From Candidatus Uhrbacteria bacterium (GTDB taxonomy: Bacteria; Patescibacteriota; Patescibacteriia; UBA9934; GWF2-40-263), in NCBI GenBank assembly GCA_016219925.1, contig JACRJU010000013.1:980-64979 (forward strand): a DNA stretch of 64,000 nt, given 5' to 3'. A program made the translations under genes and the position numbers. This document shows, in pieces, positions 8,674 through 50,869 of the stretch. Positions within the stretch are counted from its first letter, which is position 1. Each line of letters opens with the position of its first letter. The notes under the pieces are model-generated. The model ran no database searches and had not been told where the DNA came from. It saw nothing but the letters and a program-made list of their open reading frames with translations.

Positions 8674-8750
8674 GGACGTTTAGCTCAGCTGGTTAGAGCG
8701 CTACATTCACACTGTAGAGGTCGGAGGTTCGAGTCCTCCAACGTCCACCA
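8674..8750 (+). tRNA. tRNA-Val (anticodon CAC), with encoded CCA
   Basis: Manual cloverleaf. Acceptor GGACGTT/AACGTCC. D-stem GCTC/GAGC. Anticodon stem CTACA/TGTAG with loop TTCACAC. T-arm GGAGG-TTCGAGT-CCTCC. 77 nt. Confidence 0.85.
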
Positions 8751-10438: not shown

Positions 10439-10466
10439 CCGACCGCCTGACTGGTCGGTTTTTTTG
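10439..10466 (+). terminator. rho-independent terminator
   Basis: CCGACC-GCCTGACT-GGTCGG hairpin followed by TTTTTTT. Confidence 0.6.
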
Positions 10467-10526
10467 TTCCCTTGCCCTGTTGCCACCCCCCTTTTTTTCT
10501 GTTATGCTGGAAACGATTTTGACTTT

Positions 10527-11129
10527 ATGCCCAATAGCCTGACTGAAGAACAACTCCAGCAGAGATTTGGACCGATCGCGGGCTCTCTCCTTTTTTTCGT
10601 CTTCGAGGTGGTTCAGATTGTTCTTATTTCCGCTGCGATTATTATCCCGATCCGATACTTTTTGATTCAGCCTTTTTATGTGAAAGGGGCGAGCATGGAA
10701 CCGAATTTTTTCGATCATGAGTATTTGATCATTGATGAACTCTCGTATCGTTTTGGGCATCCAGAGCGCGGCGAGATTGTCGTGTTCCGCTATCCGCGCG
10801 ATCCCTCACAGTTTTTTATCAAACGGGTGATCGGTTTGCCCGAAGAGACGGTGGAAGTGGGAGACGGACATGTGGTCGTCTATACGAAAGAACATCCCAA
10901 TGGAGAGGTGCTCGAGGAACCCTATCTGGACGGGGTGCGAACAGGAGGAACGGTCCGTGCCACCCTTGGGGATGATGAATATTATCTGATGGGAGACAAT
11001 CGAGGGGAAAGTCTGGACTCACGCATCTTTGGCTCGGTGAAACGTTCGGCGATCATCGGACGCGTCTGGTTCCGGGGATTACCGCTTTCGCGTATGAGAA
11101 CCTTTCAAGCTCCATCCTATAATCTCTAA
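10527..11129 (+). CDS. lepB: signal peptidase I
   Basis: S26 motifs: GASMEPNF (Ser box), RGEIVVF, and GDNRGESLDSRIFG (box E). Start is at ATG 10527 (MPNSLTEEQ). The 10464 TTG start of the track ORF overlaps the upstream terminator. Confidence 0.88.
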   Translation: MPNSLTEEQLQQRFGPIAGSLLFFVFEVVQIVLISAAIIIPIRYFLIQPFYVKGASMEPNFFDHEYLIIDELSYRFGHPERGEIVVFRYPRDPSQFFIKRVIGLPEETVEVGDGHVVVYTKEHPNGEVLEEPYLDGVRTGGTVRATLGDDEYYLMGDNRGESLDSRIFGSVKRSAIIGRVWFRGLPLSRMRTFQAPSYNL

Positions 11130-12850: not shown

Positions 12851-13618
12851 GTGACACGCCCTGATATGTCTCTTGCAAACCGCATCAGCGATGACATGAA
12901 GGAGGCCATGAAAACCAAAAACAGCGCAACGCTTTCCACGTTGCGTTTGTTGCGTTCCGCGATGAAGAACAAACAGATCGATGTTCAACATGAATTGTCT
13001 GATGAGGAAATTTTAGCGGTCATCAAAACATCCGTGAAACAACTGCGCGATAGTATCGAATCTTTTGAGAGCGGCGGTCGGCAAGATTTGGCGCAAAGCG
13101 CGCGTGGGGAAGTGATCGTCCTTGAAGCTTACTTGCCTGCACAGCTTACAGATGAACAGCTTGAAAGGATGGTGAAGGAAGCCATCACACAGACGGGGGC
13201 AACCAGTAAACAAGACATGGGCAAGGTGATGGGAGCGGCCGTCAAGGCGGTTTCTGGCGGGGCAGATGGATCGCGCATCAAACAGATAGTCGAAAAATTT
13301 TTGCCGGTTATCGTTTTGGTCGGACTCACAGGTGTGCTGGTCGTTCATCCGGCACAAGCCGCCATTGATATCTTGCCGGTCCAGCTTTCGCAGTATTCCC
13401 TGTTTGAGACACTTGTGCGGATCTTGCGCGTCTTGCTCTTGTGGTTTGGCGTGCTCGCGATCAACATGATTTTACACGGCGGGTTTCTTTACATGGTGTC
13501 TTCCATGCGCGATGAGAACCATGCCAAAGCGTGGACTAAAATTGCAACAGGATTTTTGACTTCCTTGGCAATCGTCTTTTTGTATGGGATTGCGACAATT
13601 GTGATTGAAGTCATGTAG
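12851..13618 (+). CDS. GatB/YqeY-domain protein fused in-frame to a C-terminal signal-peptide plus two-helix pilin-like (tentatively TrbC/VirB2-like) membrane module
   Basis: Residues 1-150 match the YqeY domain (ANRISDDMKEAMKTKNSATLSTLRLLRSAMKNKQID...). From EKFL|PVIVLVGLTGVLVVHPAQAA onward the sequence is hydrophobic. It contains HGGFLYMVSS...AKAWTKIATGFLTSLAIVFLYGIATIV, homologous to the N-termini of the next two genes. Confidence 0.7.
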   Translation: MTRPDMSLANRISDDMKEAMKTKNSATLSTLRLLRSAMKNKQIDVQHELSDEEILAVIKTSVKQLRDSIESFESGGRQDLAQSARGEVIVLEAYLPAQLTDEQLERMVKEAITQTGATSKQDMGKVMGAAVKAVSGGADGSRIKQIVEKFLPVIVLVGLTGVLVVHPAQAAIDILPVQLSQYSLFETLVRILRVLLLWFGVLAINMILHGGFLYMVSSMRDENHAKAWTKIATGFLTSLAIVFLYGIATIVIEVM

Positions 13619-13744: not shown

Positions 13745-15598
13745 ATGCAGTGCATCCGCATGAAATTCAAAAATCGAGCAGCGGCAGCGTTAGGTGTGCT
13801 GTCTTTTTGCGTTCTCGGATTGATCGTTTTAGGACATCCGGCTTTCGCGCAGGATTTCTTGAGTCAGTCTGCGCAGACCTCTGGACTTCCACAGACAGAT
13901 TTGATCGTTGTGATTGCTCGTCTCATTCGGGCGTTTCTCGGAATTCTCGGGATTATTTTTGTCGTTTTGGTTATTTATGCGGGATACCTGTACATGACTT
14001 CTCAAGGTGATCCCACAAAAACAGCAAAAGCCAAAAAAATTATCAGCCAGGCCGTCATTGGCCTTATCATCATCTTGGCTTCCTTCGCGATCGTTTCTTT
14101 TGTCTTGGACGCTCTGTTAAAAAAGCCGAACGGGCAGATTAAGAGTTCACCGCCGGTGGAAAAGTATTATGAGCCGCTTTCCGGCGCCCTTGGGGCCGGT
14201 ATTGTTGAGAGTCATTACCCGCCACGCAACGCGTACGACATTCCGCGTAACACGAAAGTTTTCATCACTTTTAAGGAACCGATTGATCCGGCGTCCTTAA
14301 TCGATGGGTACAAGAAGGCACTCAGTGAAAAAGATCCGAATCAAGCCAAAGTCCTCAACACGACAAACGTGTGGTTGTATGAGACGGCAAAAGGGAAGGA
14401 CAAAAAATTGGCTTCGGTAGCCGTGAATGTCGCCACTAACGAAAAACACACGATTTTCGTTTTTGACCCCGTGGATCTTTTGGGAGATTCGGCGCAAAAC
14501 ACGAACTACACCTTCTCGCTTCAATCGGGGATTAAAAAGGATGATGGGAAAAATGCCTTTACCGGGGTGTATGCTTCCGGTTATGAGTGGACGTTCCAAG
14601 TCTCGACGAAACTTGATCTCACTCCACCGAAGGTAATTTCGGTTATTCCAAAACAGGACGCCAATGAACCCCGTAATACGACCATCGAAATTCAGTTCAA
14701 TGAAGCGATGGATCCAATTGCTTCTGCCGGTTCTTACCTTATCGGTATCGGTAAAGATCCCTTGTTCACCAACATCGCGGTCCTTGGGGCGGGACCAAAA
14801 AATGTGGAGGGGACGTATGAGATTAGTAGCGGATATCAAACGGTAGGGTTTACCACGACTGACGCGTGTGCGAAGGATCCTTGCGGTGACACGATCTATT
14901 GTCTTCCCGGTAATCAAAAATTTAGTGTCACGGCACGCGCGGCCACGCTTGATCCCTCCAGTCCTCCTCAAGCAAAGTTGGAAGGAGTTTCTTATGATGG
15001 ACTTACGGATGCCGCTGGCAACTCCCTTGACGGAAGTGGCGATGGCATCGCCTGTGGCTCGGATCAAGACAAGATCGCCTGCGCGGGTGGCGCGGCCAAC
15101 GACAATTATGCCTGGGGGTTCACCACAACCGCTGAGGTCAATAGCACGGTTCCGCAAGTGACCACGCTGACCCCCAGCGTGGATGGAGAAAATATCGATC
15201 CTAACAAGCCGATCGAGATTGGAGTGAGCACAGCGGTCAAATCATCGAGTGTGAACAGCAACACCGCGTCGCTTTGGCCGGATCCTCTCTATAAAGATAA
15301 ACAAGGGAAGATGTTTGCCATGTGGTTTGATCCTGACGCGGACAATTCAACCGGAAAAGGTTTGATTTCCATTGGACACCCGGCGTTTATCAGCAATGCC
15401 GAGGGAGGGTATGAGTACTATCCGGTTTTGACGCAGGGGATTAAGAGCGCGTATCAGATTTGTTTGTATCCAGCCACCCAACAGGGCGGGGCTTGCAATG
15501 GCGCGGATTCAACACAGCCCTATTGTTGCAACGGGAAGCCCTCGGCTGGTCCGTGCAAGACGAAAAAGGCTAAGGGGATTTTGCCGGGTAACGAATAA
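13745..15598 (+). CDS. secreted or cell-surface protein. N-terminal signal peptide plus pilin-like two-helix module, then Ig-like (SbsA/Big-type) domains and a Cys-rich C-terminal tail
   Basis: AGGAG RBS 6 nt upstream. Signal peptide ...LGHPAFAQ. LIRAFLGILGIIFVVLVIYAGYLYMTSQGDPTKTAKAKKIISQAVIGLIIILASFAIV module. LTPPKVISVIPKQDANEPRNTTIEIQFNEAMDP Ig-like repeats. Confidence 0.8.
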   Translation: MQCIRMKFKNRAAAALGVLSFCVLGLIVLGHPAFAQDFLSQSAQTSGLPQTDLIVVIARLIRAFLGILGIIFVVLVIYAGYLYMTSQGDPTKTAKAKKIISQAVIGLIIILASFAIVSFVLDALLKKPNGQIKSSPPVEKYYEPLSGALGAGIVESHYPPRNAYDIPRNTKVFITFKEPIDPASLIDGYKKALSEKDPNQAKVLNTTNVWLYETAKGKDKKLASVAVNVATNEKHTIFVFDPVDLLGDSAQNTNYTFSLQSGIKKDDGKNAFTGVYASGYEWTFQVSTKLDLTPPKVISVIPKQDANEPRNTTIEIQFNEAMDPIASAGSYLIGIGKDPLFTNIAVLGAGPKNVEGTYEISSGYQTVGFTTTDACAKDPCGDTIYCLPGNQKFSVTARAATLDPSSPPQAKLEGVSYDGLTDAAGNSLDGSGDGIACGSDQDKIACAGGAANDNYAWGFTTTAEVNSTVPQVTTLTPSVDGENIDPNKPIEIGVSTAVKSSSVNSNTASLWPDPLYKDKQGKMFAMWFDPDADNSTGKGLISIGHPAFISNAEGGYEYYPVLTQGIKSAYQICLYPATQQGGACNGADSTQPYCCNGKPSAGPCKTKKAKGILPGNE

Positions 15599-15738: not shown

Positions 15739-18700
15739 ATGAAGTTTTCTTTTCGATCATTAATTAAAGGATTTCTGCTCGCCCTGGCCGGCGCGGGTGC
15801 GCTCTTGGCGCTTCCCGCTCTTGCTCAGGTTGATCTTGGAGCTCTGAAAGCGTTTGGAGAGGCGGCGGGGTTCAGCACCGGCCCTTCCGTCACGCTTATC
15901 ATCGCCCGACTGATTCGCACCGCGCTTTCGTTCGTCGGGATTGTGGTTGTGATCATGGTTGTTTACGGAGGATTTTTGTACATGACGTCCGGCGGCAATG
16001 CCACACGTCTTGAAAAAGCCAAAAAGATTTTGATTCAAGCGGTCATCGGACTCCTGATCGTCCTTTCCTCGTTTGTGATTGTGCAGTTCATCATTTCTCG
16101 CATGGTGGAAGCAACCGGGGGAGGGGTTTCTTCATCGCAAAGCGGTCCGGGCGACTATCCAGATGGAACCACTCTGACATCGTTTCATCTCTCTTCGGTT
16201 AATACCCAGTGTGCTGCAGCTCTGAATAATTTACAGCTTCAGCTCGTTTTTTCAAAGGACGTAAATCCAGCAACGGTCTCGGCGGCGCTCGGCATCAAAA
16301 AACAAGGGGGCGGACCTGTCGAAGGAACGTTTGTTACAAGCGGCAGTCTCGTAACATTTACCCCATCGACTTCCTGTCCGGCACCGAATCCTCAAGCGAA
16401 ATGTTTTGATCCAAATGCTCAGAGTGCAACTTACAATCTCGTCGTGAATGCCGGTGTCTTGAAATCATCAAGCGGCGCAACGCTGAAGTGTACGACTGAA
16501 TTCCCGTGTTCGTTTACGTTTACCACAGGGACGGGAGTTGATGTGGCGGCTCCGACACTCTTCATGAGCGCTCCGGGCGACGGACAGTCTGTGGCCGCTG
16601 GGACGATTCAAATGTTGCAGGCAAAAACGCAGGATGACACCGGCGTTTCGAGCGTTGATTTTTATGCGGTGAATGACGACAGTCCTCTATTTACGTCTGG
16701 TTTAAATCTCTCGACCGCTGGGACGATTGTTGGTGGCAACCAGAACAATGCGTTTTCCACCGATCCCCAGCTCCAGTGGAATACCGCCGGTTACACCATA
16801 AACAAGAGCTATCCGCTTTGGGCGCGCGCGCTCGATTGCGCGGGTAATGCAACGGTTTCTACCAAAATTTCCGCGATGGTGAGAGGACCTAATTGCGACA
16901 ATGACGTCCAGGACGTTGATTTGGGCGAGACGGGTGTGGATTGTGGAGGCGATCCCGTTTCGGAATTTTATTGCGGAAAGTGTGATGAGCAAACCTGTAC
17001 GCAAAATAATGAGTGCGCTTCGGGTTTGTGTGAAAATGGAGTCTGCGTCAGCAAGCCACGCATTGATCAAGTTTCTCCCGGCGATGGAAAATCGGGGAAC
17101 CTCGTGACGATTTTTGGAGACGGATTTGAGGACGTAGGTGGAACGGTGACGTTTCTTGGAGGCGCGAGCGTGAGCACATCGGCGTATGCGTGCAACGGAA
17201 ATGTTTCTTGGAAAAAGAAGCAGATCGTGGTTCAGGTGCCGGAGGGAGCGCAAGATGGTCCGATTGAAGTAGCGACCGTTGGAGCAAAGAAAAAAACCGA
17301 TCGAACGGATGATGCGTTTGGTCCCCTTTCATCAGATTTTGATATCAACGCCGTTGCCCGTCCTGGATTATGTCTGGTAGATCCCGGCACCGCCAAGCCG
17401 GGAGCGCAGGTCAGCTTTTTCGGGTTAGGTTTTGGGGCCGTTCAGGGAGCTTCGAGCCTCTATTTTAAAGATGTCGTTTCGCCTTCTATTGTTTCTTGGG
17501 CCGATAAGCTCGTCAAAGGGGCTGTTCCAAACATGAATGCCGCTCCGATTACGACGCAGATTTTTTCTGGAACGTATCAGTGTGTGGATGACAAATTGCA
17601 ACAGATCGGCAAAACGTGTCAGCAGGATGAGGAGTGTGGAGAGGGGAACACCTGCGCAAAGAAATGGTGCACGGAAACGCTCGCTTATTGTTCGGACGAT
17701 GTCTCATGCGGGGTGCAAGGAGGCAAATGTCGCAGTGTCCGCGTTGGATCCAATGGTCTCAATTTCGTCGTTGGATCGTCAGCGGGCGACACGGAAAAAC
17801 CGGTGATCACTTATCTGGATTCAGGATGGTCTTCTTGCAACGGTGGGGCCAATAATGGAAAACATTGTGGCACGAAAGCGGATTGTGGTGATGGGGAATG
17901 TAAGGGCGCCCCTAACTGGGGACCTTCCGATCAGTATGTCACCATTTTTGGCACAGGCTTCGGGACGGCTAAGGGTCAAGTTTTCTTTACGAATGCCGCC
18001 GGACAAACCGCTCTTGCCAAAACGAATTTTCCGGAAATCTGTGGCGATGATTTTTGGAAGGATACGAGCGTGACGGTGAAAGTTCCGGACAGTCTTCAGG
18101 CGGGCGGGGCTGTGGACCCGGGAAATTATCAAGTGACGGTCAAAAAAGGGCCGGTCAGTTCCAATGGCGTAGATTTTGTCGTTGTGAAAGATCAACCCGG
18201 CCCGGCGATTTGTCATATTGATCCTCTCTCCGGTCCGGTCACGACGACGAAGGTTCAGGTATTTGGAGAAAATTTGGGAAATGAAAAAGGGGCGATCGCT
18301 TTTTACGATAAACAAAATGCGGATTATCTTTTCTGGAATTCAACGCAAGTGACTGATGCGGTCGTCCCCAAGGAAGCCAAGACCGGTCCTTTGGCCGCTG
18401 TTTCAAAAGTCGGTTATCGGTCCAACCCTGTATCCTTCACCGTTGGAAGTTGTCAGGAAAATGTCTCCTGTCCGGCCAACACGCAGTGCTGCGGGGACGG
18501 TTCCTGCAAAAAATCCTGCAACTTTATCCCGCCTGTTGCCAATTTTGCCTACCGAGTCTCGACAGGTTTGATCCCCAAAGCTCCGCAGATTCTTCCGTTG
18601 TGCAACGATAACGTGAAATCGCCAAGCCCGTGGGAATCGTGGCCAGATTCAAAAACCGTCTGTCGAAATTCGGTTGTTACAGCGACGTTTGATTTGATGA

Positions 18701-21700
18701 TGAATCAGGATTCGCTCAAGAGTCATGTCGCCGTCGAACAGTGCACGGACTTGCAAGCGGATGGATGCAAGGCGTGGCAAGCCGCTGAGGGGAATATGGT
18801 CACAAGTGAGACCACGTTTAACTGGACGCCAAACGTATTGTTTGCGGCCGCGACGCGTTATCGCGTTACAGTTGCCGGGGGAGAGGGCGGTGTGCAGTCG
18901 CACGCGAGTGTCGGCGGGGCGTTTATGGAGGAAGATTACTCGTGGGAGTTTTTAACAGCGCCTGGAGATCAAGTGTGCGATGTGGGTGGGGTGAACGTCA
19001 CGCCTTACACCTTTACGGCTGTCGAGGATGAGCAACAGGTTTCCTATCTGTCTCAACTCGTCGCGTCGGGATATCAGTGCGTGACCATTTCCTGCCAAGG
19101 CCAAAATATCAGTTGGTCATCTAACAAACCGGTTGCGGAAGTGCAACAGCCAAGCGTTGGAGTTGGACAATGCAAAGAGCAGGTGATTGCCCATGAAGAA
19201 ACACAAGGCGATCCGGCCAAAATTAAAGCGACCGTCTTGAATGCGGATCAACAGCCTTTCGATACCGGCGATCTGTTTATCAATTTTACCGATCCGACCG
19301 TTTCGAGTTTCTTCCCGCAATGTGCGACCGCGTGCGTCAATGCCAAACCGTGGGCGCGCTTTGGGGCGAAGATGAATCCAGGGAGTTTTGCTCAAGGAGT
19401 TTTGCTCTATGAGTGTGAAGACGCCATTTGCGGACCAGGTAAAATCAAAGACGCGGGACTCTTAAAGTCAGTGAGTTATGTAGATGACACGCGGACGCTT
19501 TTTGTTGAACTTTCAGGGAAAATGAAACCCGATAAATGGTATCGCGTGGTGTTGAAGGGGACGATATTGAAATCAATTTCTGGGGTTTTTCTGAAAGATT
19601 CGGGTTCTAACTTCGGTTCGGATCAAAACAAATTTTTCCCATCAGATTTTTCCTGGCGTTTTAAGACCAAGGTTTCGGATGTGAGCTGTGGAGTCGATTC
19701 GGTCTCGGTTATTCCCAAGACGACGATTTTGAAAACCATTGGAGCGCGAGAGCAATATCATGCGACGACATACGGCGCACCAGACGACTGTGATGCTTCG
19801 GGACAAGCGCTTCAGGACACGGGGTACACCTGGAAGACTTGGACAGCGGCGGATCTACAACCCGAACTCTTTACGCCAGCCCAAGGAGGCACCTCGCAGG
19901 ATGTGGCGTTCATGCTTAAAAATGGAGCGATTTCTCTTTCAAACAAGATGCCCCTTTGGTGCTCGCCGGTGTGTCTAAACACAGGCAGTCAGATCAATGC
20001 GAAAAAAGCGCTTTGTGGCGATGGGGTCGTCAATGGTCCTGGAAAAATCCCATCGGAAGAGTGTGATGGGGGAGCCTGGTGTTCCAGCAGTTGTTTGCTT
20101 ATCGGGACAAACGCGTGTGCCGCTGGTGTTGCGGCAAGCTGCTGTGGCAATGGGGCGGTAGATCCCGGTGAACAGTGCGACGATGGCGGACATATTCCAG
20201 GCGATGGCTGTTCGGACGTTTGTTTGAATGAAGGTTCGGCTTCGATTGGTTCCGTGTGTGGCGATGGCGTGATCGATTTTGCGCCGGGCACGGGAGGGGA
20301 AGATTGCGACGACGGAAACACGAAAGACGGTGACGGATGCTCATCCAAATGTTTGTTTGAAGGATCGATCGCGAAGGTTGCGGATTTTTCTGTGTGCGGC
20401 AATGGCGGCAATCCCGAAAAAGGAGAAGATTGCGATGATGGAAACAATATCAATGGAGACGGTTGCAGTGCGAGCTGTTTGAATGAAGGAACCGCACAGT
20501 GTGCTTTAGTCTGTTCGGATACGCAGGCAAGTTGTCAAACTAAACTGGACTGCGCAGTTGGAGCGGTTTGTGCTCCGGCGAAAACGCCCTGTTGCGGCAA
20601 TGGCGGCAATCCTGAAAAAGGAGAAGATTGCGACGACGGGAACGCGAAATCCGGTGATGGATGCAAGAGCTCGTGCTTGAAAGAAGGTTCTTCCGTTAAT
20701 TATGTCGTTCCATCTTTCTGTGGGGATGGGAAAAAAGAAACGGGAGAGGAATGTGAAGCGGATGGGAATCTCATTGGTCAAGCCTTTAAGATCGTGGGAT
20801 ATGGAGTCGCACAAGTAGGGAGTAAAGCCGCCAAAGAAGTTTCTCCTGAGGGCTATGCGGTTTCGACGATTACCGCAACCGCAGAGGGGATTCCCGGAAC
20901 AGCGACGCTTCAGGTGGAGTGTTCCTGCAAAACTGACGCTTCGTGCGGTGACACCAGTCTTTATGCCTGTGGCACAAGTGGATGCTGTTATCCGCGTCCG
21001 GATGTGACGGTTTTTGAGCCGTCAGGCAATGGACCTGGGGGTCAGGGATTTTGCCGTAATACCGCCGTACGCGTGAAATTCAATCAACAGATGGATCCGG
21101 TTTCTTTCGGCGCGCTCGATGCCGACGGCAATGGTTCGATTGATCAAAATGAGCTTGCGAATATTCGTTTGGAACTGGTCAGTAACAATGGCAACGACAG
21201 TGAAAATAATGAGAAAAATTGTCCGACCGACTATTTGTTTGCACAAGCGAATTCTTCACAAGAATCTGTGTTGGCGCGATTGTGGCACTGGGTAGAGCGG
21301 ACCGTTCAAGGGTTTTTCGGTCATGAGGCGCAAGCCGGCGATCCGAAAAAATGTGTTGCTCCCATTTCTTATCAAGCGGTCAATGCCAATGACGGACAAT
21401 GGGTGTATCTCACCTTGAATGCCCCTCTGGAAAAAAATTCCACGTATCGCATTCGCGTGGTGGGGGATACGGATCCAAGTGATACCAAGACCCAAGGTGT
21501 GAAAAGCGTGGATGGAGCCGACGCCTGTTTTGGGCCAGGATGTGCGACAGGATACAAGTCAGCCACGTTTAAGACAGGAAACGAAGTATGCTTACTGGAC
21601 GCGGTGACCATCGAAGACGTTGAAAAGATCGGCGCGGCGCCCTATGAGCCTCCAAGTCCAGCCTTCTTCACCAAGCTTAATGAAGAGCATCGATTCCTTT

Positions 21701-24700
21701 CGCAAGCGCAAACGTATCGCGCGGGTTTGGGAACATATGAACCGATCGTACCAACCAACATCTATGGGTGGAGCTGGGAGTGGGGATCCTCTGTCGCAGA
21801 CGATAAAACGAAACCAGAAGACATCGTTGATCTGACCTCACAGAAAAATCCGCCAGATCCAGGAATGGAAGGTCGATTGGCTGCCGTCGGCCATAATGGT
21901 TCTGAACATGTGCTCGCCAGCGCGGTCGTCAATAAAGATACGCTCAATAATCCCACCACGATTGGAACGGAAAAAGGCACCGTGGCCGGTACGCTTGAAG
22001 TCACCGCGCTCACCTGTGAAAATCCGTGGCCGGAACCGGATCCCCTTACTGGTTGGAAGCCTTATCTTGAAAAAACCGATCCGGCCAAGCCGTCTAACTT
22101 CGGTTTCTATTACTGTCGCGACCGAGGCGATCAAGGAACAGGGGATGACCTGCCTCCTTTGGATCCGCCGGTTGATGTGACTTCCATTGCGGTTGGCGGA
22201 CTTTTGCAAGAATTGTTCTTCAAGGTTCAAGGCACGCCAGATGCGATTGGGGTGCGCGTTTTCCAGAACCCGAATTATCTCTCGCCGGCCGCATGGTTTA
22301 AGTCGCAAAAGTTTACTGGAGCGTTTGGGCCGATTCAAATGGACGGTTATGAAGGCATTCAATCCGGCAATACCGCCTATGTGGCCGCGGCCAACGAGCA
22401 TGGGGTTGTTCTCTATCCGAATATTTACGTGATTTCTTACAATCCTAGCGCTGGAAGCGACGCCCGAGCGATTTTTGAAGAAATTTTGAAGAACTGGCGG
22501 TTCAATGCCAACACGAACGAAGTCAGCAATGTGAATCTGTGTCGGATTGGCAACAAATACATCAAGGACGACAGTGAAAATTATGTGGCTTGTTCTTGGG
22601 ATGGAGATTGTGTGGAGGCGCTGGTCGATGGGCAATGCACGGTTTCGCATCTCAAGGAAGAGGCTCTGGCTCTGTGTCCTTTGGCTCCTGAAAAGAAAGC
22701 CCTGTGTGATAGCGATAAGGCCAAGATTCAGCGCGACATGAAGCGCCTCACTGACATCACACAACAAGTCACAACCTTGGACGCCTATGGAGGCAAGAAT
22801 CGCCATTGTTCAGTAACGAAAACGCAATCATGCAGTGTAAACGAGCAGTGTCCGGGAACCGAGAAATGCGTTGCGGGATATCCCACCATTAAACAAGGCA
22901 CGTTCGTTCCTGCGATGAGCGTGAGCAAATGGGGGTCGTGGAACGCATCGTTCAGCAATGAGCTGGGCAGTGCCGTGCCTATTGATCCCCTCAATGTCTT
23001 TTGGCGATCCTGCTCGACCCTTGGTCCAAAGTACGATCCGGCAACCTGTTTTAACAGTATGGAAGGAAAATTTGTCTGTCCGAATCAATCTCATGTTTAT
23101 GCTTACCAAAACAAGGGTGGAGAAGCCTATACCTTGTTTACGCAACTTGAATTTATCGGGGCGCCATGGGTGTTTGATATTGATCCGTTTGAGAACGACG
23201 CCGCAACGATTGTCGCCGAGTACCCAGCCGGCGCAAACGTCCCGGGCCAGATGAAGAAGGGCTTTGCCCCGGCTCCAGTCTTTTGTTCGGATCAAAAAGT
23301 TTGGGGGACTTCCACCTCCTGCGGTGATGGAGTCGTTGGGGCTCAAGAGATCTGTGAGCCCGGACAGATACAGTCGGCTCCATGTACCGTGAGCGTAAAC
23401 GGTCAGCTAAAAAATGGGTTCATCAATGTAGGATGTCGTTCTGATGTGACGAAGCCAAAGGCCTGTCAAGAATATCAAACAGCGGACGAGGCCAAGATCG
23501 CGGGCGCGGTGTGTGTGCCCAACCAGTGCGGCAACGGTATTTTGGAAACAGGAGAACAGTGCGATGACGGAGCGCTCAACGGAACGTACGGACATTGTGG
23601 GAAGAGCTGTACTTTTGCGGGGTCTTTTGTGTGTGGGGATGGTTATTTAGCAGGAGGGGAACAGTGCGATTGCGGAACCCTTATCAATCACGCCGCTGTT
23701 GTAGCCGATCCCACGAGCTGGGCCGCGAAGAACAAAAATCAAAACCAAATCTGTTTCCAAGCGAACGGGCAATATAGTCCACTTCCAAATGGTTCCTGTT
23801 CATTTGATTGCAAAATCCCCGGACCATCCTGTGGAGATAAACTCGTAAACGGTGCCGAACAATGCGATGGCACAATGGAGACGTATGCAGGCAAACTTTG
23901 TCCAGACGGAAAAACCACCTGCGAAACAAATAACGATTGTCCTGGAAATGGAGTGTGCGGAGATCCTGGTCACATCGCGTGTCCTGCCAGTAGTCATGTG
24001 TGTGTTGGAGGAAACAAGGCCGGACAGAGCTGTACTCAAAATCAACAATGTGGAGCAGGAACCTGTTCAACCTTCAGCTACCCACTCACCCGCACGCGTC
24101 TTTGTACCAATGCCTGCACCTGGCCGGGATGGTCTGTTTGTTTGGGAGGAGATCAGATCTGCGGTAATGGGACAAAAGAAGGAACGGAAGAATGCGATGA
24201 CGGAAACCAAAACGATAACGATAGTTGTACCCACACGTGTAAGAAAAATATTTGTGGGGATAGTTATAAATTTGACGGGGTCGAAGCCTGCGACAATGGT
24301 GGGCAAAACGTGTTGCCTGACAGCCAAAACCCCTGTACGGCCCAGTATGGCGGCTCGTGCAATTACTGCAATACCCTGTGTCAATACAAGACCTTTTCTG
24401 GATCCTATTGCGGTGACGGGGTCATCAATGGAACCGAATTTTGCGATGGGAGCGCGATTCCGTATTCTTGTTTGAAAGTTTCCGGGTCGGATCGTTCGAG
24501 AGCAAAGAGCTGTCCGGCGACAGATGCCCTTGCCAAAGGGCCTTGCGATCAGGGCTTTACCTGCCAGCTGACGGGTGTGTGTAATGGCGGAACCCAAAAC
24601 GGTCAGCCTTGTACGCTCAAACCTCCAGCCAAAACAGTGGCCCAGTATACGGCTTCATCCAATCAGGCGGCGTGTGCAGGCGGGGGCGTCTGTGTGGCGC

Positions 24701-25911
24701 CGACTTGCACGAAAGACTGTACGGCGGCGTGTCCGTTTACGCTACAAACCACAAGTGTGCTTGTGCAAAGCGAACTGCCGGATGCTCAGCCACAGGAGAG
24801 CGTTGATCTCTACAGTTATTTCAACAAGGAAAAAAATTCTCCAGACAGCGCATCGCTTTTCTTGCCGGCGTGTAGCGTTGGAACACGCATCAGCGCGGAT
24901 GTTGATGACGCAAACGTCCATGAGCCTGATGTGGATGTGGTTTTCGTAACGGATCTTTCTGGAAGCATGATGGATGCGCCAAACGGCGGCGGGGCTGTGG
25001 TCCCAAACCGTCGCATCGACATTGTTGCGGAATCGACCGCAGAAGCCATTGATACGCTTTTTAATGCGTATGCGGGTTCTGAAGGGAAATTGCGCATTGG
25101 ACTTGTCAGTTTTGGGCAGAAGGATGATCCGGCAACACCGGTAAATGAGGAGATAACCGCGCAGTTAAATTCTGGGCTCCTTGAAAACTCGGGCGCAAAT
25201 AAACAACTTCTAAAATCCATCGCTCTTGGGTATCCAGCAAAAGTGGATGGGTGGACGCCAACTCCCGCTGGAATAAAAAAAGCCATTGAAGTTTTATCAA
25301 CCGAGCCCGACTCCCACGTAAAGGTCGTTGTTCTTCTTTCGGATGGAGATCCGACTTACGCTTTGGATCAAAAAAGTTGTGGCGATAAAAAGAACATCTC
25401 CGTTACGACAGAAGCCGGCCAGAAAACTCTTTCAGGAAGTCATTACTGTGTTGCTGAAGCTCGTTATGGTCCGCCAGGAGGTCCATCGATGATTAAAGGT
25501 CACTCAGAAATTTTCTTCTATTCCGCCGCGATTGCCACCTCAAATGATTTGCGAGCGCAAATGGAGCACATGTCAAGTATGGGATGTGCGGGGAATGATA
25601 TGTCTAGCATAGATGACTGCCAGGATGGCTTGTATGCTTTTGATGCAGACACCAAAGAAGAGATCAAACAGATGTACGATCAAATCATGACGTCTATCTT
25701 AAGTGCAACGACAACGATCACCGCTTCGAAGAATGGTTCGGTGAAATCCGCAACCGGACTCACTCCAGTGGGCAACAATGTGACCATTCCCGTTCCTGAT
25801 ACCTTCCAGTGCCAAAGTCAACCATTCACCATGCCGATGAAAACGAATTTCTATGGAACCGGCACGATGAAATTTAGCAACTTTAGCTTTACGTATTGTC
25901 CGTTGCCTTAG
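15739..25911 (+). CDS. giant (~3,390 aa) cell-surface adhesin-like protein. Pilin-like N-terminal module, multiple IPT/TIG-Ig domains, Myxococcus-type Cys-rich repeats, C-terminal von Willebrand factor A domain
   Basis: First ATG is at 15739 ([30 protein letters not shown]). The track TTG at 15694 lies inside the palindrome. Module: [65 protein letters not shown]-like: [44 protein letters not shown]. Cys repeats: [28 protein letters not shown] (x5-6). vWA MIDAS: [12 protein letters not shown] ... [12 protein letters not shown]. Confidence 0.85.
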
Positions 25912-25916
25912 CCCTT

Positions 25917-26669
25917 ATGGATCTCAATGACTATCAATCCCCCGCGCGTCGGTTTACCCCCAAACAACTTGCTTTGATTGCAGGCGGGGTCATTTTGGCT
26001 GTGGCGATTGTGGTTCTGGTGGTTGTTTGGATCAGGTCGCGCGCCTCAATCAATCGTCCAAGTCTCCTACAACAGTCGCGGGCAACGATCGAACAAACAT
26101 GTACCGATGCCAGCGATCCGGAAGCTTGTCGGATTGAGCAGACCAAACAGGCGGCCGAGCAGAACAGTCAAAGCAAACTCTGTTTGGATTTACCCGATGC
26201 GGATAAAGATGGATGCTATTGGGAGCTTGCCGTCAAGCAACAGGATTTGAAAACGTGTGGGGAGATCAAACAGGAAACGTATCGCGCTCTTTGCACGGAT
26301 GAAGTCGCTCGCGACCAAGCGATAGCCTCAGGGACGCCGTCGCGGTGTGATATGATTAAAGATGTCCAGCAACGCGAGGGTTGTCATCAAGCTCTTGAAC
26401 CAAAAGTCGATAGTGCTTTTGAAGCAAAGGTTTTGGAAGCCAATCAAAAACAAGATCGGAACCTGTGTGATGTTTTTGAAGGAGATCAAAAACAGGATTG
26501 CAAAGAGCGCGTGCTCATTGATGATCCGGATTTTGATGGCCTCGCCACCGAGCAAGAGGTGCAGGTGTACGGAACAGATCCGCGCAAAGCGGACACAGAT
26601 GGCGATGGGTACAATGATGCAGATGAAATTGCCGCGGGGTATAATCCGCGTGGCGAGGGTAAGCTTTAA
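25917..26669 (+). CDS. single-TM membrane protein with a Cys-rich ectodomain and C-terminal TSP3-like Ca-binding repeats (paralog 1 of 3)
   Basis: TM IAGGVILAVAIVVLVVVWI. C-terminus GTDPRKADTDGDGYNDADEIAAGYNPRGEGKL. ATG 25917 is preferred over 25896, which overlaps the end of the giant gene. Confidence 0.65.
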   Translation: MDLNDYQSPARRFTPKQLALIAGGVILAVAIVVLVVVWIRSRASINRPSLLQQSRATIEQTCTDASDPEACRIEQTKQAAEQNSQSKLCLDLPDADKDGCYWELAVKQQDLKTCGEIKQETYRALCTDEVARDQAIASGTPSRCDMIKDVQQREGCHQALEPKVDSAFEAKVLEANQKQDRNLCDVFEGDQKQDCKERVLIDDPDFDGLATEQEVQVYGTDPRKADTDGDGYNDADEIAAGYNPRGEGKL

Positions 26670-26679
26670 TTTTTCGCCT

Positions 26680-27315
26680 ATGTTTGACGATCTCAACAAA
26701 CAGCCCGACGATATTTTTGCAGAGACAGATAAGTCCGCTCCTCAGGTGGCCGTCGTGCCGCCTTCGGAGCCATCGCAACCTGCACCGACAGCTAGTGCCC
26801 CGTCAGGCGTCGAGGCGCGCATGGCTGAAATGGTCACCGGCCGCTCTTCCAGAGGCGGACTTAAAACAGCGGTCATTGTTTTAGCGATCATTGTGATTAT
26901 CGGCGGAGCTTTTTTGATTTCATGGAAAATTTTAACCTCGCAAACGCCGGTGACGCCATCGGCTCCAGAAACGACTTCAAGCAATGCGTCAGAACCTGCC
27001 ACGCAAGAACCAGCCGCGGCTGAACCGACTCCAGCGGTCACTCCCGAACCCGAGCCGACCCCGATTGTTCCGGCCGATATCGATTCCGATCAAGATGGAC
27101 TTCTGGATTCGCAGGAAGCTCAATATGGCACCAATTCCAATAGTCCAGATACCGATGCCGATGGGTTATTTGATCGCGAGGAAATCGAGGTATATCAAAC
27201 CGATCCACTCAATCCAGATACAGACAGCGACACCTATCTCGATGGGGCCGAAGTGAAGTCTGGATATAATCCAAAAGGCTTGGGCAAGTTTTTCGAGGTT
27301 CCAAAAGGGAGCTAG
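26680..27315 (+). CDS. single-TM membrane protein with a Pro/Thr/Glu-rich linker and TSP3-like DxDxDG repeats (paralog 2)
   Basis: ATG 26680 (MFDDLNKQPDD). TM AVIVLAIIVIIGGAFLISW. DIDSDQDGLLD, DTDADGLFD, DTDSDTYLDGAEVKSGYNPKGLGKF. The track ORF from 26362 starts inside the previous gene. Confidence 0.65.
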   Translation: MFDDLNKQPDDIFAETDKSAPQVAVVPPSEPSQPAPTASAPSGVEARMAEMVTGRSSRGGLKTAVIVLAIIVIIGGAFLISWKILTSQTPVTPSAPETTSSNASEPATQEPAAAEPTPAVTPEPEPTPIVPADIDSDQDGLLDSQEAQYGTNSNSPDTDADGLFDREEIEVYQTDPLNPDTDSDTYLDGAEVKSGYNPKGLGKFFEVPKGS

Positions 27316-27320
27316 AGATT

Positions 27321-28313
27321 ATGGCGAATCCTTCGTCTTCACCTTCAACGCAAACTCCTTCTGCAAGTTCGTCCTCCGGCGCGCGTATTTTTACGATGCC
27401 GACGCCTTATCGAGGAGGGAAGGATGTGAAGATGGTTGAGCCGGAAAAAACACGATCTGTGGCCACGCCCGTGGTCGCATCGGTGCCAACCCCAGCGCCC
27501 GCGGTGCACGCGGCTCCTAAGATCCCGACCAAAAAACGCACGCATCAGGCCTTGTTTATTTCGATCGGTGTCGTCGCGGTCGCTTTGTTGATCGGAGGAT
27601 ATTTGATTTGGCGTAGTGCACAAAAACAAACCCCCACACAAACTCCAACCCCGACCCCTGTGACCGAGCCGCGCCCCGCCGTACAAACACCGGAGCCAAC
27701 CTCAACTCCGACTCCAACGCCAGAATCACAACCTGAAACTCCGTTTCCCACACAAATTGTTGCTGGGACAGATTCTGATTCAGATGGTCTGACAGATGTT
27801 GAAGAGACGGCGATTTATCACACGAATCCCAGTTTGCCAGATACGGATAGCGATGGATTTTTGGATGGCAATGAGGTCTTTCATCGGTATAACCCCGCGG
27901 GTTTGGCTCCCGGAACGCTTTTAGAAGCGGGCGTGGTCAACGAATTTACTGTCCCCGGAGTTTTCGTGATCGCCTATCCATTAACATGGACGACGACCCC
28001 TCCTCCGGATCTTGCGTTTACTTCACAAACTGGAGAGTCTATCCATGTCACCCCAGTGATTGCAACAGATGAGGCTTCGGGCAAAACCCAAGTCAACGAA
28101 TGGATCACCGCTCATGGCGGACAAGAAAAAGTGTTGTCGACCATTTCGAAGAGCGGTTATCAAACGTATATCACCCAGGATAAATTGAGCGCCCTCCTTC
28201 TGGTTGGCCAGACGCTTGTTGAATTTAAGTATGATCTCGCCACAAAGACAACGATTGATTTTCTTCAAACCTTTCAGATGATGCTCAACAGCGTACGCAC
28301 GCCCGGCGTATGA
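27321..28313 (+). CDS. single-TM membrane protein with a PT-rich linker, TSP3-like repeats and an extra C-terminal ~130-aa domain (paralog 3)
   Basis: TM ALFISIGVVAVALLIGGYLIW. TDSDSDGLTDVEETAIYHTNPSLPDTDSDGFLDGNEVFHRYNPAGLAPG. Confidence 0.65.
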   Translation: MANPSSSPSTQTPSASSSSGARIFTMPTPYRGGKDVKMVEPEKTRSVATPVVASVPTPAPAVHAAPKIPTKKRTHQALFISIGVVAVALLIGGYLIWRSAQKQTPTQTPTPTPVTEPRPAVQTPEPTSTPTPTPESQPETPFPTQIVAGTDSDSDGLTDVEETAIYHTNPSLPDTDSDGFLDGNEVFHRYNPAGLAPGTLLEAGVVNEFTVPGVFVIAYPLTWTTTPPPDLAFTSQTGESIHVTPVIATDEASGKTQVNEWITAHGGQEKVLSTISKSGYQTYITQDKLSALLLVGQTLVEFKYDLATKTTIDFLQTFQMMLNSVRTPGV

Positions 28314-35864: not shown

Positions 35865-35942
35865 GGATCGGTGGTGTAGCCCGGTTAACACGTCTCCCTG
35901 TCACGGAGAAGATCGCGGGTTCGAATCCCGTCCGGTCCGCCA
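35865..35942 (+). tRNA. tRNA-Asp (anticodon GTC), with encoded CCA
   Basis: Manual cloverleaf. Acceptor GGATCGG/CCGGTCC with one G-U. D-stem GTGT/ACAC. Anticodon stem TCTCC/GGAGA with loop CTGTCAC. T-arm GCGGG-TTCGAAT-CCCGT. Confidence 0.85.
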
Positions 35943-43059: not shown

Positions 43060-43450
43060 TGGTGGAGCTGGGGGGAATCGAACCCCCGTGTGGTAAGGCA
43101 TGGCCGTACGATGGTTCCAAGCTCATTCCCGCTTTGATCATCGCGCGCTTGAAGCGGGACAAAATGCGCGCGAGGGTGCCGGTCGCAACATCTTGACCGC
43201 GCGAGATCGGCGACCGCGCAGTCCAGCTCGAAGATATGACATTCGTGTTGAGCTATCGAGCTTCGCTCAGACGAACGGCTCTACAAACCCTTAGGCGAGA
43301 GCTGGGGCAAAAGAAGGAACGCGCAAAGCGTCCTTGATTTTCGCCATGACGTTGTTGGCAAGTATCGTCTTGCATGGAGAGATTTACGAGGTCCCATACG
43401 GCCTCGGCTTGATCACACGGTCAGGGACTCCCATCGAAACCGATCAGCCC
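43060..43450 (-). ncRNA. ssrA: tmRNA (transfer-messenger RNA)
   Basis: 5' GGGGCUGAUCGGUUUCGAUGGGAGU... and 3' ...CGGGGGUUCGAUUCCCCCCAGCUCCACCA (T-arm plus acceptor plus CCA), read on the minus strand. Predicted tag ORF GCC AAC AAC GUC AUG GCG AAA AUC AAG GAC GCU UUG CGC GUU CCU UCU UUU GCC CCA GCU CUC GCC UAA gives ANNVMAKIKDALRVPSFAPALA. A terminator hairpin follows at 43030-43059. Confidence 0.85.
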
Positions 43451-43562
43451 CAGGCGTCTCACTCTACGCATTTTTTTTCTTTCTGTCAATCAAACTGCCG
43501 CGCTTGTTCACACCCGCGCGTGATCAATTTTTGAAAATCCTGTATTATAACTATAACGTTCT

Positions 43563-47713: not shown

Positions 47714-48346
47714 ATGTCCGCGAATCATCTCAAAACACTATCCGCAGGTTGGCAAACGATTTTGATGTTTGGTTTGTTGGGACTCGTGTTTGCGCTTATC
47801 GTCTCTTTTGTTCAGCCGCTTCAGTATGGTTCAACGGCGCGCCTCTTGATTTTGCAAGACGTGGGTTCTTCGGTGGATGCGTATACGGCTTCGCGCTCCG
47901 AGGAGCGTATCGCGGAAAATCTTTCCACGATTATTTACACGAGTACTTTTTTGGATCAGGTGCTCTCGGCCGGGTTTGATATTCGCGCGAATACGTTTCC
48001 TACGGATTCGGCCAATCGCCGTCGGGCTTGGCATAAGGCTGTGACCGCAACGGTTTCGCGCGGTTCGGGATTGCTTACGATTTCCGCCTATGACCAGGAT
48101 GTGAGGCAGGCCGAGCAGGTCGTTCGGGCTGTGGCTTTTGTTTTGACCGGACGGGTGGGGGAGTTTACTTCTGGGGGAAATGTGCAAGTTCGATTGATTG
48201 ATGCTCCGCTCAATTCGCGCTGGCCGGTCCGGCCAAATATTTTTGCAAATACCCTGACCGGATTGATTTTGGGAGGATTTGTTGGGATAGCCGTTGTCTT
48301 GGTTCAAACGGAAAAGATTCGTCGGAGGCATCAACTGCACGGATAA
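47714..48346 (+). CDS. Wzz/YveK-like polysaccharide chain-length-determinant family protein (short form)
   Basis: ATG 47714 (MSANHLKTLSAGWQTILMFGLLGLVFALIVSFVQPLQYGSTARLLI). C-terminal TM. The track ORF from 47579 overlaps the upstream gene. Confidence 0.6.
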   Translation: MSANHLKTLSAGWQTILMFGLLGLVFALIVSFVQPLQYGSTARLLILQDVGSSVDAYTASRSEERIAENLSTIIYTSTFLDQVLSAGFDIRANTFPTDSANRRRAWHKAVTATVSRGSGLLTISAYDQDVRQAEQVVRAVAFVLTGRVGEFTSGGNVQVRLIDAPLNSRWPVRPNIFANTLTGLILGGFVGIAVVLVQTEKIRRRHQLHG

Positions 48347-48416
48347 TCAGTCTCATAAAAAGCCATTTTTTGACATAAAAAGCCTAAAAAGGTCTTTTTT
48401 TGTCTGTTCCCGTCTC

Positions 48417-48445
48417 TTGACATTTTTGTCTGATTATGCTACATT
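48417..48445 (+). promoter_or_regulatory. sigma70-like promoter (TTGACA, 17 nt, TACATT) driving the R1 leader
   Basis: TTGACA at 48417-48422 and TACATT at 48440-48445. AT-rich, immediately upstream of the structured leader. Confidence 0.45.
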
Positions 48446-48594
48446 GCCACGTTCAATGCTCCTTATGTGACCCGCGTTTTGAAGCGGTTTGATGTCCAGC
48501 CGGAATGCCTCCTCCTCATTCTGCGCCGGATATCAGACCACTTCAGACCGTATGGTCTGGTGTGTCCCTTAAAACATCACCAAGAACATATTTG

Positions 48595-48850
48595 GACAGA
48601 TTGGTTTCTCTCTGCACCTACGGCTTTACTTCTCTTAAGGAGATCCTTCGTCGGCCTCTGGCCTCCTCAGGATGACAAATAAAATGTTGTGTCATCCTGA
48701 AGGAGCTTGAATCGACTGAAGGATCTTACAGAATGTAAAACCGCGAGTGCAGAGAGACAACCATCCCTCCGGGGTGGCTCTGTGGCATACAGCTGAGACG
48801 GGATTTCCCCCGCTTCGGTATCGTGTGTCAGATATCCCCCGGAGGGGGAG
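48595..48850 (+). promoter_or_regulatory. structured 5' leader / repeat element R1 with an SD-sequestering stem
   Basis: Long-range inverted repeat TCTCTCTGCAC (48607-48617) with GTGCAGAGAGA (48747-48757). Nested hairpins AGATCCTTC/GAAGGATCT and CTCAGGATGACA/TGTCATCCTGAAG. CCCTCCGGGG (48765-48774) pairs with CCCCGGAGGG (48837-48846), which contains the SD GGAGGGGG 6 nt before ATG 48854. The 105-nt core 48746-48850 is repeated at 52086-52190 with one mismatch. Confidence 0.65.
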
Positions 48851-48853
48851 ACA

Positions 48854-50341: not shown

Positions 50342-50869
50342 GCCTCTGCGCGGCGCGGCTCGCCTCCTCCCGAGTGCGCGCCGTCATCACGCCGGTTGTC
50401 CCCCGACCGGCACTGGGTGACCCCGCCTCCCGCGCAGTTCGACTTCGGTCGGCTGTGCGGGGGCGGGGAAACCTGGACCTCTCATCAGCTTTTGCTGATC
50501 CTGGCTCCACACACCTACTCGTGTGGAGACCTCGTACGAGAAGTTGAGTCATTTATTGCCCGAGCTTGTCGAGGGCTGTAGATGGATCATTCGACTTCTG
50601 ATATGAGGAGAACGAACATCTTTGCCATACTGTCCTGTCATCCTGAGCGAAGCGAAGGATCTCGCGTTTCTAGAGATTCTTCAGTCACTGCTGATGGAGT
50701 TATATCGACCGAAGGATCCCAAGGTGTAAAGCTGGGGAAAGCAGGATGATTGATCGCCACCCGCTGGTGTTCAGCCATCCTGTTTTCCCCGGACCCTGAC
50801 CCATGGTGGGTTCGGGGGCGGATTGGACAGAGAGAAGTCCACGGGGAGGCCCGTGGCAGGAGGAGATCC

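Follow-up and report, generated by a model that had tools for sequence, protein, structure and literature searches.

A giant vWA-domain protein of Candidatus Uhrbacteria with an N-terminal VirB2/TrbC-like pilin module: a candidate membrane-anchored adhesin and its conserved family

The stretch of DNA analyzed in this work (in the following called the window) comprises 64,000 nucleotides of contig JACRJU010000013.1 and contains a gene of 10.2 kb that encodes a giant protein of 3,390 amino acid residues. The deduced protein starts with a signal peptide and a hydrophobic two-helix module of the T4SS_pilin type (PF18895), continues with a long region of immunoglobulin (Ig)-like domains and cysteine-rich repeats and carries near its C-terminus a von Willebrand A (vWA) domain in which the metal ion-dependent adhesion site (MIDAS) is complete. 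Sequence comparisons assign the protein to PF18895, and a distant kinship of its module with the VirB2/TrbC pilins of type IV secretion systems (T4SSs) is likely, albeit not firmly shown. We interpret the protein, with about even confidence, as a giant fibrillar and disulfide-rich adhesin that is anchored in the membrane by its VirB2-like hairpin, and a role as host-attachment device is plausible. Cleavage, surface display, adhesion, the ligand and a link to a T4SS are features that we infer for this protein. The individual parts are all known from other proteins, namely from PF18895 pilins, vWA adhesins and giant Ig-repeat adhesins.

The reading frame is open without interruption from an ATG at position 15739 to the stop codon at 25909-25911 of the forward strand, with an alternative TTG start at 15694. 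Its product is identical over the entire length to the NCBI entry MBI5370044.1, which is recorded as 'VWA domain-containing protein [Candidatus Uhrbacteria bacterium]' and derives from a source contig of 282 kb. [quoted passage not shown] The GC content around the gene is unremarkable (~51%), and the protein contains 170 cysteines (5% of all residues). The gene and its parts are located as follows, with residue numbers referring to the deduced protein:

15739..25911, forward strand: giant coding sequence, 3,390 residues plus stop codon, corresponding to MBI5370044.1.
15739..15828, forward strand: signal peptide, residues 1-30, ending ALPALA/Q, a site of the signal peptidase I type (AxA) at which cleavage is predicted; based on hydropathy, the AlphaFold2 (AF2) helix at residues 5-29 and hhalign.
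15880..16104, forward strand: VirB2/TrbC-like pilin module (PF18895), residues 48-122, two long hydrophobic helices and a turn; based on Pfam, AF2, conservation and hhalign.
16228..16872, forward strand: membrane-proximal Ig-like domains, Big_5 at residues 164-263 and Big_7/Big_13-like at residues 272-378; based on Pfam.
17056..18513, forward strand: IPT/TIG Ig-like region, residues ~440-925, with small cysteine knots interspersed; based on three Pfam stretches and IPT-like repeats.
18649..19584, forward strand: two more Big_5 Ig-like domains, residues 971-1073 and 1184-1282; based on a Pfam segment scan.
20014..20838, forward strand: cysteine-rich repeat block 1, residues 1426-1700, six TIGR02232/DUF4215 units; based on NCBIfam, Pfam and a motif pattern.
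22006..23178, forward strand: conserved central domain, residues 2090-2480, with the motifs CENPWP...FYYCRD...DAIGVRV...WPSW...LPxDPxN; no Pfam family, first half PsbP/Mog1/LpqN-like.
23320..24708, forward strand: cysteine-rich repeat block 2, residues ~2528-2990, seven CG[DN]G...ExC[DE] units; based on NCBIfam, Pfam and a motif pattern.
24934..25608, forward strand: vWA domain, residues 3066 to ~3290; based on Pfam, the MIDAS motif and an alignment with SpaC.
24952-24966, 25249-25272 and 25333-25356, forward strand: MIDAS elements DLSGS, Thr loop and LLSDGDPT, respectively; based on motif positions.
25609..25908, forward strand: C-terminal domain of ~100 residues that ends in the family-conserved motif ...NF.F.YCP..; found in ~23 of 31 giants.

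A hydropathy scan detected three hydrophobic segments at residues 11-29, 62-80 and 97-115 and no others in the 3,390 residues. The first segment belongs to the signal peptide, which had been proposed in the initial annotation and is now supported by its end in ALPALA/QVD and by a leader helix at residues 5-29 in an AF2 model of the N-terminus that was calculated from a 35-sequence alignment. The model places a short helix at residues 33-42 and a hairpin of two helices at residues 51-82 and 88-125, with predicted local distance difference test (pLDDT) values of 90-96 over residues 60-115, and the turn of this hairpin is basic. The architecture typical of VirB2/TrbC pilins is hence present, consisting of a leader that is followed by two hydrophobic helices with a short basic loop. 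The mature giant protein would have a length of ~3,360 residues, compared with tens to ~100 residues in VirB2/TrbC pilin subunits.

The two-helix module, for which a TrbC/VirB2-like character had been claimed, matched the PF18895 profile with 31.2 bits when residues 1-154 were scanned and with 29.8 bits when residues 1-400 were scanned, each above the gathering threshold (GA) of 26.6 bits. A search of NCBIfam with the N-terminus resulted in sub-threshold matches to conjugal-transfer pilin-like models only, among them NF045849 with 26.5 bits at a cut-off of 40 and pLS20_p028. The GA of the TrbC family PF04956 (27.9 bits) was not reached by the giant protein or by a paralogue of 617 residues that is encoded upstream; the latter gave 36.8 bits with T4SS_pilin and 19.1 bits (E 0.0016, full model length) with PF04956. 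For a comparison with established pilins, a VirB2/TrbC profile was compiled from four sequences translated from annotated plasmid genes, chosen beside virB1 and virB3 on plasmids of the mating-pair-formation type T (MPF-T), and from Agrobacterium tumefaciens VirB2, in a sequence that was found to be 99.2% identical to an annotated virB2 product. The hhalign comparison of the module profile with these five sequences gave 86.9% (E 4e-6) over 74 columns, a stretch restricted to the leader and helix 1. Starting at the AxAQ end of the leader, the profiles stay in register through the first helix to the turn, and the AxAQ site pairs with the leader cleavage region of VirB2/TrbC. As a control, an equally sized hydrophobic hairpin, ATP synthase subunit c, was compared and yielded 0.2%. 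The same value was obtained for the F-pilin TraA, indicating no similarity, although this negative is a weak one. A tblastn search of 72,556 plasmids with the module gave no match. With the Pfam threshold passed and the profiles of real VirB2/TrbC proteins matched, the module is probably related in sequence to the TrbC/VirB2 families; a missing family match, which the initial annotation had named as a reason to discard its proposal, was not the outcome.

At the opposite end of the protein, the vWA profile PF00092 matched residues 3066-3208 with 26.7-32.4 bits (GA 23.8). The MIDAS residues are complete and comprise DLSGS at residues 3072-3076, the Thr loop GWTPTPAG at residues 3171-3178 and LLSDGDPT at residues 3199-3206. 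The best PDB sequence match of this region was SpaC of Lactobacillus rhamnosus (6m48), the tip adhesin of a sortase pilus; the match is weak (E 0.05), and every MIDAS position aligns with SpaC. These data confirm the C-terminal vWA domain with intact MIDAS that had been read from the sequence, and the alternative that this region lacks such a fold does not apply. The conservation of the C-terminus was counted in the 31 members of the family that reach 2,900 residues or more, the window protein included. The strict MIDAS motif [VIL][VIL]F[VLI]xDx[ST]x[ST] is kept in 17 of them and the C-terminal ...F.YCP.. motif in ~23, while the proteins P0086, P0135 and P0154 have other C-termini.

The region between module and vWA domain is composed largely of Ig-like domains and cysteine-rich repeats. 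Big_5 domains were found above threshold at least three times (residues 164-263, 971-1073 and 1184-1282). The IPT/TIG domains and the TIGR02232 repeats that the initial annotation had listed were both recovered by profile searches. In segments of 400 residues, the TIG profile PF01833 exceeded its GA of 20.9 at residues 440-515 (36.3 bits) and in two stretches at ~725-813 (32.7 bits), but no match was obtained when the whole protein was scanned at once; outside the Pfam matches the IPT/TIG region was delimited by reading the sequence. The TIGR02232 model (myxo_disulf_rpt) matched eight stretches with 107.5 bits (cut-off 20.8), and 13 CG[DN]G...ExC[DE] units were counted by pattern in the two blocks (residues 1426-1700 and 2528-2930), the first of which includes two copies of one repeat unit. 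Residues ~1700-2560 gave no match to a Pfam family. Within the family-less part from residue 1700 to 2090, an EF-hand-like calcium-binding loop was noted at residues 1790-1808 (21106-21162) as a sub-threshold EF-hand match (E 0.009-0.07).

The central domain is kept across the whole family, the most distant members included, as was evident from an alignment of the excised segments. An AF2 model calculated from 25 sequences reached a pLDDT of 89.8 and a predicted template modelling score (pTM) of 0.88. Its first half is predicted to adopt a PsbP/Mog1/LpqN-like fold, with which a Foldseek search agreed weakly, and this fold would represent a module for binding and not one of a known catalytic type. 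The second half (residues ~2325-2480) is modelled as a helix of 28 residues that is followed by a small sheet. It contains the pattern K.RD.KRL.D...YP...LPxDPxN...Y.Y...Y.L..LE, which we took to resemble the heads of GspG/type IV pilins from CPR and Gram-positive bacteria; this assignment was dropped, as Pfam, PDB profile and fold searches gave no support for it. No catalytic domain was detected in the 3,390 residues by Pfam and NCBIfam scans. Moreover, the protein contains no LPXTG-like motif anywhere, its C-terminus being ...FSFTYCPLP, no prepilin-peptidase motif of the G/[FM]xxxE type in the first 80 residues, no GGxGxD motif of the repeats-in-toxin (RTX) type and no RTX family in the Pfam and NCBIfam scans.

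The distribution of the module was deduced by comparing residues 1-135 with 1.84 billion cluster representatives, which resulted in 37,082 matches at E ≤ 1e-3. The best 150 of these matches were scanned again with a local hidden Markov model (HMM) of the module and included 18 pilin-sized proteins of up to 200 residues, 19 proteins of intermediate size, 34 proteins of more than 2,000 residues and 79 proteins in which 2 to 12 or more modules are arranged in tandem. All 34 large proteins contain a single module at residues ~45-130, and among the best 150 module matches the giant family accounts for at least 34 clusters at 50% identity. A singular fusion is therefore not what was found; the window protein belongs to a large conserved family. 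Twelve giants of different clusters could be aligned to the window protein over the entire length (32-40% identity), with the exception of lineage-specific insertions and of a different C-terminus in a few of them. A contig from Hainich groundwater (L002) encodes an orthologue of 3,101 residues (47-51% identity) in the same gene neighbourhood. The search of related CPR genomes that had been suggested for the same fusion was thus productive, as uninterrupted collinear orthologues of 2,200-4,400 residues occur in many independent assemblies of Patescibacteria, comprising Uhrbacteria, Magasanikbacteria and Kerfeldbacteria. The tandem-module proteins among the best 150 matches, such as P0032 with 1,775 residues, are multi-pass membrane proteins that consist of repeated hairpins in one reading frame.

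Additionally, the GTDB species representatives were scanned with a seed of the central domain, not the module. Since this seed was an alignment of three sequences that reports close relatives only, the resulting number of 13 genomes is a lower bound. The at least 13 genomes belong mostly to Ca. Uhrbacteria, along with Ca. Kerfeldbacteria, unclassified Parcubacteria/Patescibacteria and three metagenome-assembled genomes (MAGs) named as Gammaproteobacteria. The latter (loci L007, L010 and L015) are titled 'uncultured Gammaproteobacteria bacterium' and carry clear orthologues of the giant gene; these taxonomic assignments are probably incorrect. Of the 11 GTDB loci that have an intact 5' end, 10 contain a reading frame (2,200-3,700 residues) that begins with the module, which rules out that the giant gene arose by concatenation during assembly.

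An alignment of 14 giants revealed that conservation peaks in the pilin module, with an identity of 0.52-0.60 to the window protein. Next in rank are peaks at residues 2201-2240 and 2601-2640, and most of the stalk is conserved at 0.2-0.4. The module is also 50-60% identical to stand-alone pilin-sized proteins of 105-190 residues, and its strongly conserved positions include the non-hydrophobic residues G44, Y76, G78, M82, G86, A94 and K95. Being the most constrained segment of the protein and this similar to stand-alone pilins, the module appears to do more than span the membrane.

The giant gene is the third of a three-gene array, as the module is also present in the 617-residue paralogue and in the product of a YqeY fusion gene. 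These neighbours and the genes that follow the giant gene are located as follows:

12851..13618, forward strand: YqeY-domain protein, the C-terminal 100 residues of which consist of a signal-like transmembrane helix, the residues HPAQA and a pilin-like hairpin of divergent sequence (module at nucleotides ~13412-13612); based on Pfam YqeY and the local HMM.
13745..15598, forward strand: upstream paralogue of 617 residues with signal peptide, PF18895 module and Big_5 domains; based on Pfam and synteny.
25896..28313, forward strand: three bitopic membrane proteins with extracellular TSP3 (calcium-binding) repeats; based on Pfam, the group being kept in the Hainich locus.

The hairpin of the YqeY fusion (..HGGFLYMVSS..) matched the local module HMM with 31.5 bits (E 4e-9), and the PF18895 model itself does not match it; in the window, the giant, the paralogue and the YqeY fusion were the only reading frames that matched the local HMM. 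The hairpin is also present in the orthologous loci L001, L004 and L009, and the cytoplasmic YqeY domain would serve as a very long 'leader' of this pilin-like module. A module gene for ~560-680 residues is located directly 5' of the giant gene in the GTDB loci L004, L005, L006, L007, L009 and L011 as well as in L001 and L002. Each of the three TSP3 proteins has a cytoplasmic N-terminus and one transmembrane helix, the first of their genes overlaps the stop codon of the giant gene, and they are possible partners of the giant protein.

The gene order of the region is HtrA, signal peptidase I, HisRS, YqeY, the array, YbeY, diacylglycerol kinase (DAGK), FtsA, FtsZ, NrdR, HtrA and pyruvate kinase. 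This order is syntenic, and the syntenic loci likewise consist of housekeeping genes. The gene for signal peptidase I (S26; 10464-11129) is located three genes 5' of the array and occupies the same place in L001; its proximity may be a coincidence or may reflect the enzyme that processes the AxA/Q leaders. A gene for transfer-messenger RNA (tmRNA; 43060-43451, reverse strand, Rfam 117.7 bits) and genes for tRNA-Val(CAC) (8674-8750, forward strand) and tRNA-Asp(GTC) (35865-35942, forward strand) were detected in the window, which as ordinary chromosomal features fit a chromosomal rather than a mobile-element context.

In the proposed mode of action, the pre-protein would be exported by the Sec pathway and cut by signal peptidase I after ALPALA (residue 30). 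The mature N-terminus would then be formed by the VirB2/TrbC-type module, composed of a short outer helix and the hairpin, with the basic turn directed towards the cytoplasm. With a cytoplasmic turn, both ends of the module would be positioned outside the cell and the ~3,270 C-terminal residues would be extracellular. This ectodomain lacks further membrane segments and would constitute a stalk of Big_5 and IPT/TIG domains and two disulfide-knotted TIGR02232 blocks, interrupted by the PsbP/Mog1/LpqN-like domain of the binding type and ending in the vWA domain with its complete MIDAS and the conserved C-terminal domain; a stalk length of ~100 nm was estimated from the domain count. As in other vWA adhesins, a divalent cation would mediate the binding of the distal vWA/MIDAS head to a ligand on a partner cell or surface, while the pilin hairpin would keep the protein tethered in the cytoplasmic membrane. 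The giant protein probably works together with the products of the two preceding module genes, and the module might be used either to associate laterally, within the membrane, with further proteins of this kind or for extraction into a pilus by a T4SS.

Several observations weigh against this interpretation. In the scan of the whole protein, the PF18895 score was 25.8 bits and thus 0.8 bit under the GA; the hhalign match with VirB2/TrbC ends after helix 1, and the profiles compared are hydrophobic. A PDB profile search with the module gave no match, and a Foldseek search with the N-terminal model yielded generic helical hairpins only (E>0.4), with an Aeropyrum conjugative pilin no higher than rank 25 (E 6.5); because the helical hairpin is too generic a fold, this search is uninformative on a kinship with VirB2. 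T4SS families are absent from every sizeable reading frame of the 64-kb window, and the locus is situated amid housekeeping genes. Moreover, a substantial minority of the family has a degenerate vWA head or another domain in its place, and since the head is not constant, MIDAS-dependent binding cannot be the sole function of these proteins.

The most sceptical view of the N-terminus is that the pilin label is an artefact of composition and that a generic signal peptide and two-helix anchor, unrelated to VirB2/TrbC, have been misnamed. The non-specific PDB profile and fold searches would be expected in that case, as would the missing plasmid matches, the PF04956 scores below the GA throughout and the lack of similarity to TraA. 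This view is nevertheless highly improbable, as it does not account for the PF18895 scores above the GA in the isolated N-terminus and in the paralogue or for the difference between 86.9% with VirB2/TrbC and 0.2% with another hydrophobic hairpin of the same size. Composition would not preserve the seven conserved non-hydrophobic positions either, and a generic anchor is not expected to be the best-conserved segment of a protein of some 3,400 residues. An artefact of assembly or annotation, by which several genes were concatenated or a pseudogene was taken for a gene, has in its favour that the source is a metagenome assembly and that the orthologous locus L002 was broken into pieces by the gene caller. 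The frame is open across 10.2 kb, and the DNA repeats within the gene measure only 46-51 nucleotides, are 61-92% identical and correspond to the cysteine-repeat units; such short and diverged repeats give no hint of an assembly collapse or join. The same uninterrupted and collinear reading frame is found in independent assemblies from other sites at 32-51% identity. The concatenation that the initial annotation had considered is thus contradicted by the recurrence of the frame, and on these sequence data an artefact is effectively refuted, with a negligible residual probability.

More substantial is the alternative that a VirB4-driven T4SS encoded elsewhere extracts the module into a VirB2-like pilus, in which the giant protein would be a tip or rare subunit and its ectodomain a tip adhesin filling the role of VirB5 or PrgB, proteins that Patescibacteria lack. 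F-type pilins expose their C-termini at the surface of the pilus, and fusions to these ends are tolerated. The module is the best-conserved part of the giant, resembles stand-alone pilins and matches VirB2/TrbC profiles, its helices of 32 and 38 residues are longer than a plain transmembrane anchor needs, and the array of three module genes recalls the VirB2 arrays of Patescibacteria (PMC12102498). In Table S1 of the same study many ABY1 genomes are listed, including Uhrbacteria, with a Yes/No column that was taken as VirB4 presence, and according to the literature a PrgB-like adhesin was not detected in the phylum. Opposed to a pilus are the missing T4SS genes in the window and its conserved housekeeping neighbourhood, and a pilus of this type has not been visualised in these bacteria. 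Not every subunit of a helical filament could carry an ectodomain of ~3,270 residues, and the abundance of proteins with tandem modules (2 to 12 or more) suggests that the module can act as a permanent membrane element. We regard this alternative as possible but on the whole unlikely, and the placement of the giant in a pilus, as envisaged in the initial annotation, received no support: the window is devoid of T4SS genes, the fold search was generic, and a plain anchor fits equally well. Its generalization, a T4SS pilus of ABY1 bacteria in which 'modular VirB2 pilins' with ectodomains of 500-4,400 residues are tip or minor subunits, the giant replaces VirB5/PrgB and tandem-module proteins form pre-assembled layers or membrane platforms, is tentative and rather doubtful. 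Finally, the giant might not be an adhesin at all but a structural or enzymatic component of the envelope with an accessory vWA domain, for instance a spacer or fibrillar coat that sets the distance between cells or to a cell wall, or a carrier of the central domain that acts on host lipids or glycans. The central domain and the pilin module are indeed better conserved than the vWA region, the strict MIDAS is restricted to 17 of the 31 giants, and some members end differently. This proposal is quite improbable in view of the lack of a detectable catalytic domain, the composition of Ig-like domains, cysteine repeats and a vWA domain that is that of fibrillar adhesins, and the MIDAS that is intact here and in most relatives.

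With respect to known systems, VirB2-like pilins and arrays of their genes occur widely among Patescibacteria and are essential in Southlakia, a PrgB-like adhesin was not detected in this phylum, and T4SSs of the Gram-positive type are otherwise without pili (PMC12102498, PMC10633639, PMC12857230). The patescibacterial VirB2-like pilins (Quinonero-Coronel 2025, PMC12102498; Wang 2023, PMC10633639) share with the giant protein the PF18895 family, the phylum, the signal peptide and hairpin and the organization in gene arrays. They are small pilus subunits that are often encoded beside virB4, whereas the ectodomains comprise 3,270 residues in the giant and ~490 residues in its neighbour, and the array of the window is situated in a housekeeping setting that lacks T4SS genes over 64 kb. 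The canonical proteins VirB2/TrbC (Agrobacterium VirB2, PF04956) likewise have a long leader with AxAQ at its end, a hydrophobic hairpin and a basic turn, but they comprise ~70-120 residues, are encoded beside virB1/virB3 and polymerise, in contrast to the giant with its 3,390 residues and no such neighbours in the window.

The vWA MIDAS that aligns with that of SpaC from L. rhamnosus GG and an Ig-like stalk are common to both proteins, the difference being that SpaC is anchored by a C-terminal LPXTG motif and the giant, devoid of LPXTG, by its N-terminus. RrgA and GBS104 are further vWA tip adhesins of sortase pili. The adhesins SiiE, those of the LapA/RTX type and a Mobiluncus adhesin of 7,651 residues are similar in size, in the stalk of Ig repeats and in a distal binding region; they are substrates of type I secretion systems or anchored by sortase, whereas the giant is rich in cysteine, contains a Sec signal, is anchored by a hairpin of the pilin type and has no RTX repeats. 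The closest analogue is PilB of Streptococcus sanguinis, a modular type IV pilin that consists of a pilin module and a vWA/MIDAS module (Raynaud 2021, PMC8179133). In both proteins a filament-subunit module is located at the N-terminus and a vWA/MIDAS module is grafted to the C-terminus, and both organisms are monoderm. PilB differs in its unrelated class of pilin, the leader for prepilin peptidase, the single α1 helix, the dependence on the type IV pilus machinery and its length of a few hundred residues.

Within the searchable literature, no description was found of a VirB2/TrbC-type module that carries a large ectodomain or of the three-gene array. The publications found around this topic deal with small VirB2-like pilins, giant genes of Omnitrophota and modular type IV pilins; the claim that this architecture is undescribed therefore holds to that extent. 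The database names of family members, such as 'VWA domain-containing', 'IPT/TIG domain-containing', 'FG-GAP-like repeat-containing' and 'cysteine-rich repeat protein', ignore the module and point to an annotation gap. The giant protein bears on the question of how most Patescibacteria, other than the cultivated Saccharibacteria, recognise and hold their hosts, an adhesin dedicated to the patescibacterial T4SS having not been found so far: the family provides concrete and conserved candidates for host attachment in uncultivated Patescibacteria. The pilin module would anchor both a conserved giant of the adhesin type and its mid-size neighbour, which extends the idea of the 'modular pilin' from type IV pili to conjugative-type pilins. 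If the extraction into a pilus were true, modular pilins, so far described for type IV pili only, would exist for conjugative-type pili as well.

Apart from the array, the window contains a GC-rich island at ~48000-58000 with a GC content of 61-64%, compared with ~51% elsewhere. The island encodes proteins of cysteine-rich repeats of the MopE type ('Cu-binding', PF11617) at 48854-50341, 52207-53205, 53404-55176 and 55362-57536. A second GC anomaly was observed in which a segment of 39% at 36-38 kb is followed by one of 60% at 38-40 kb.

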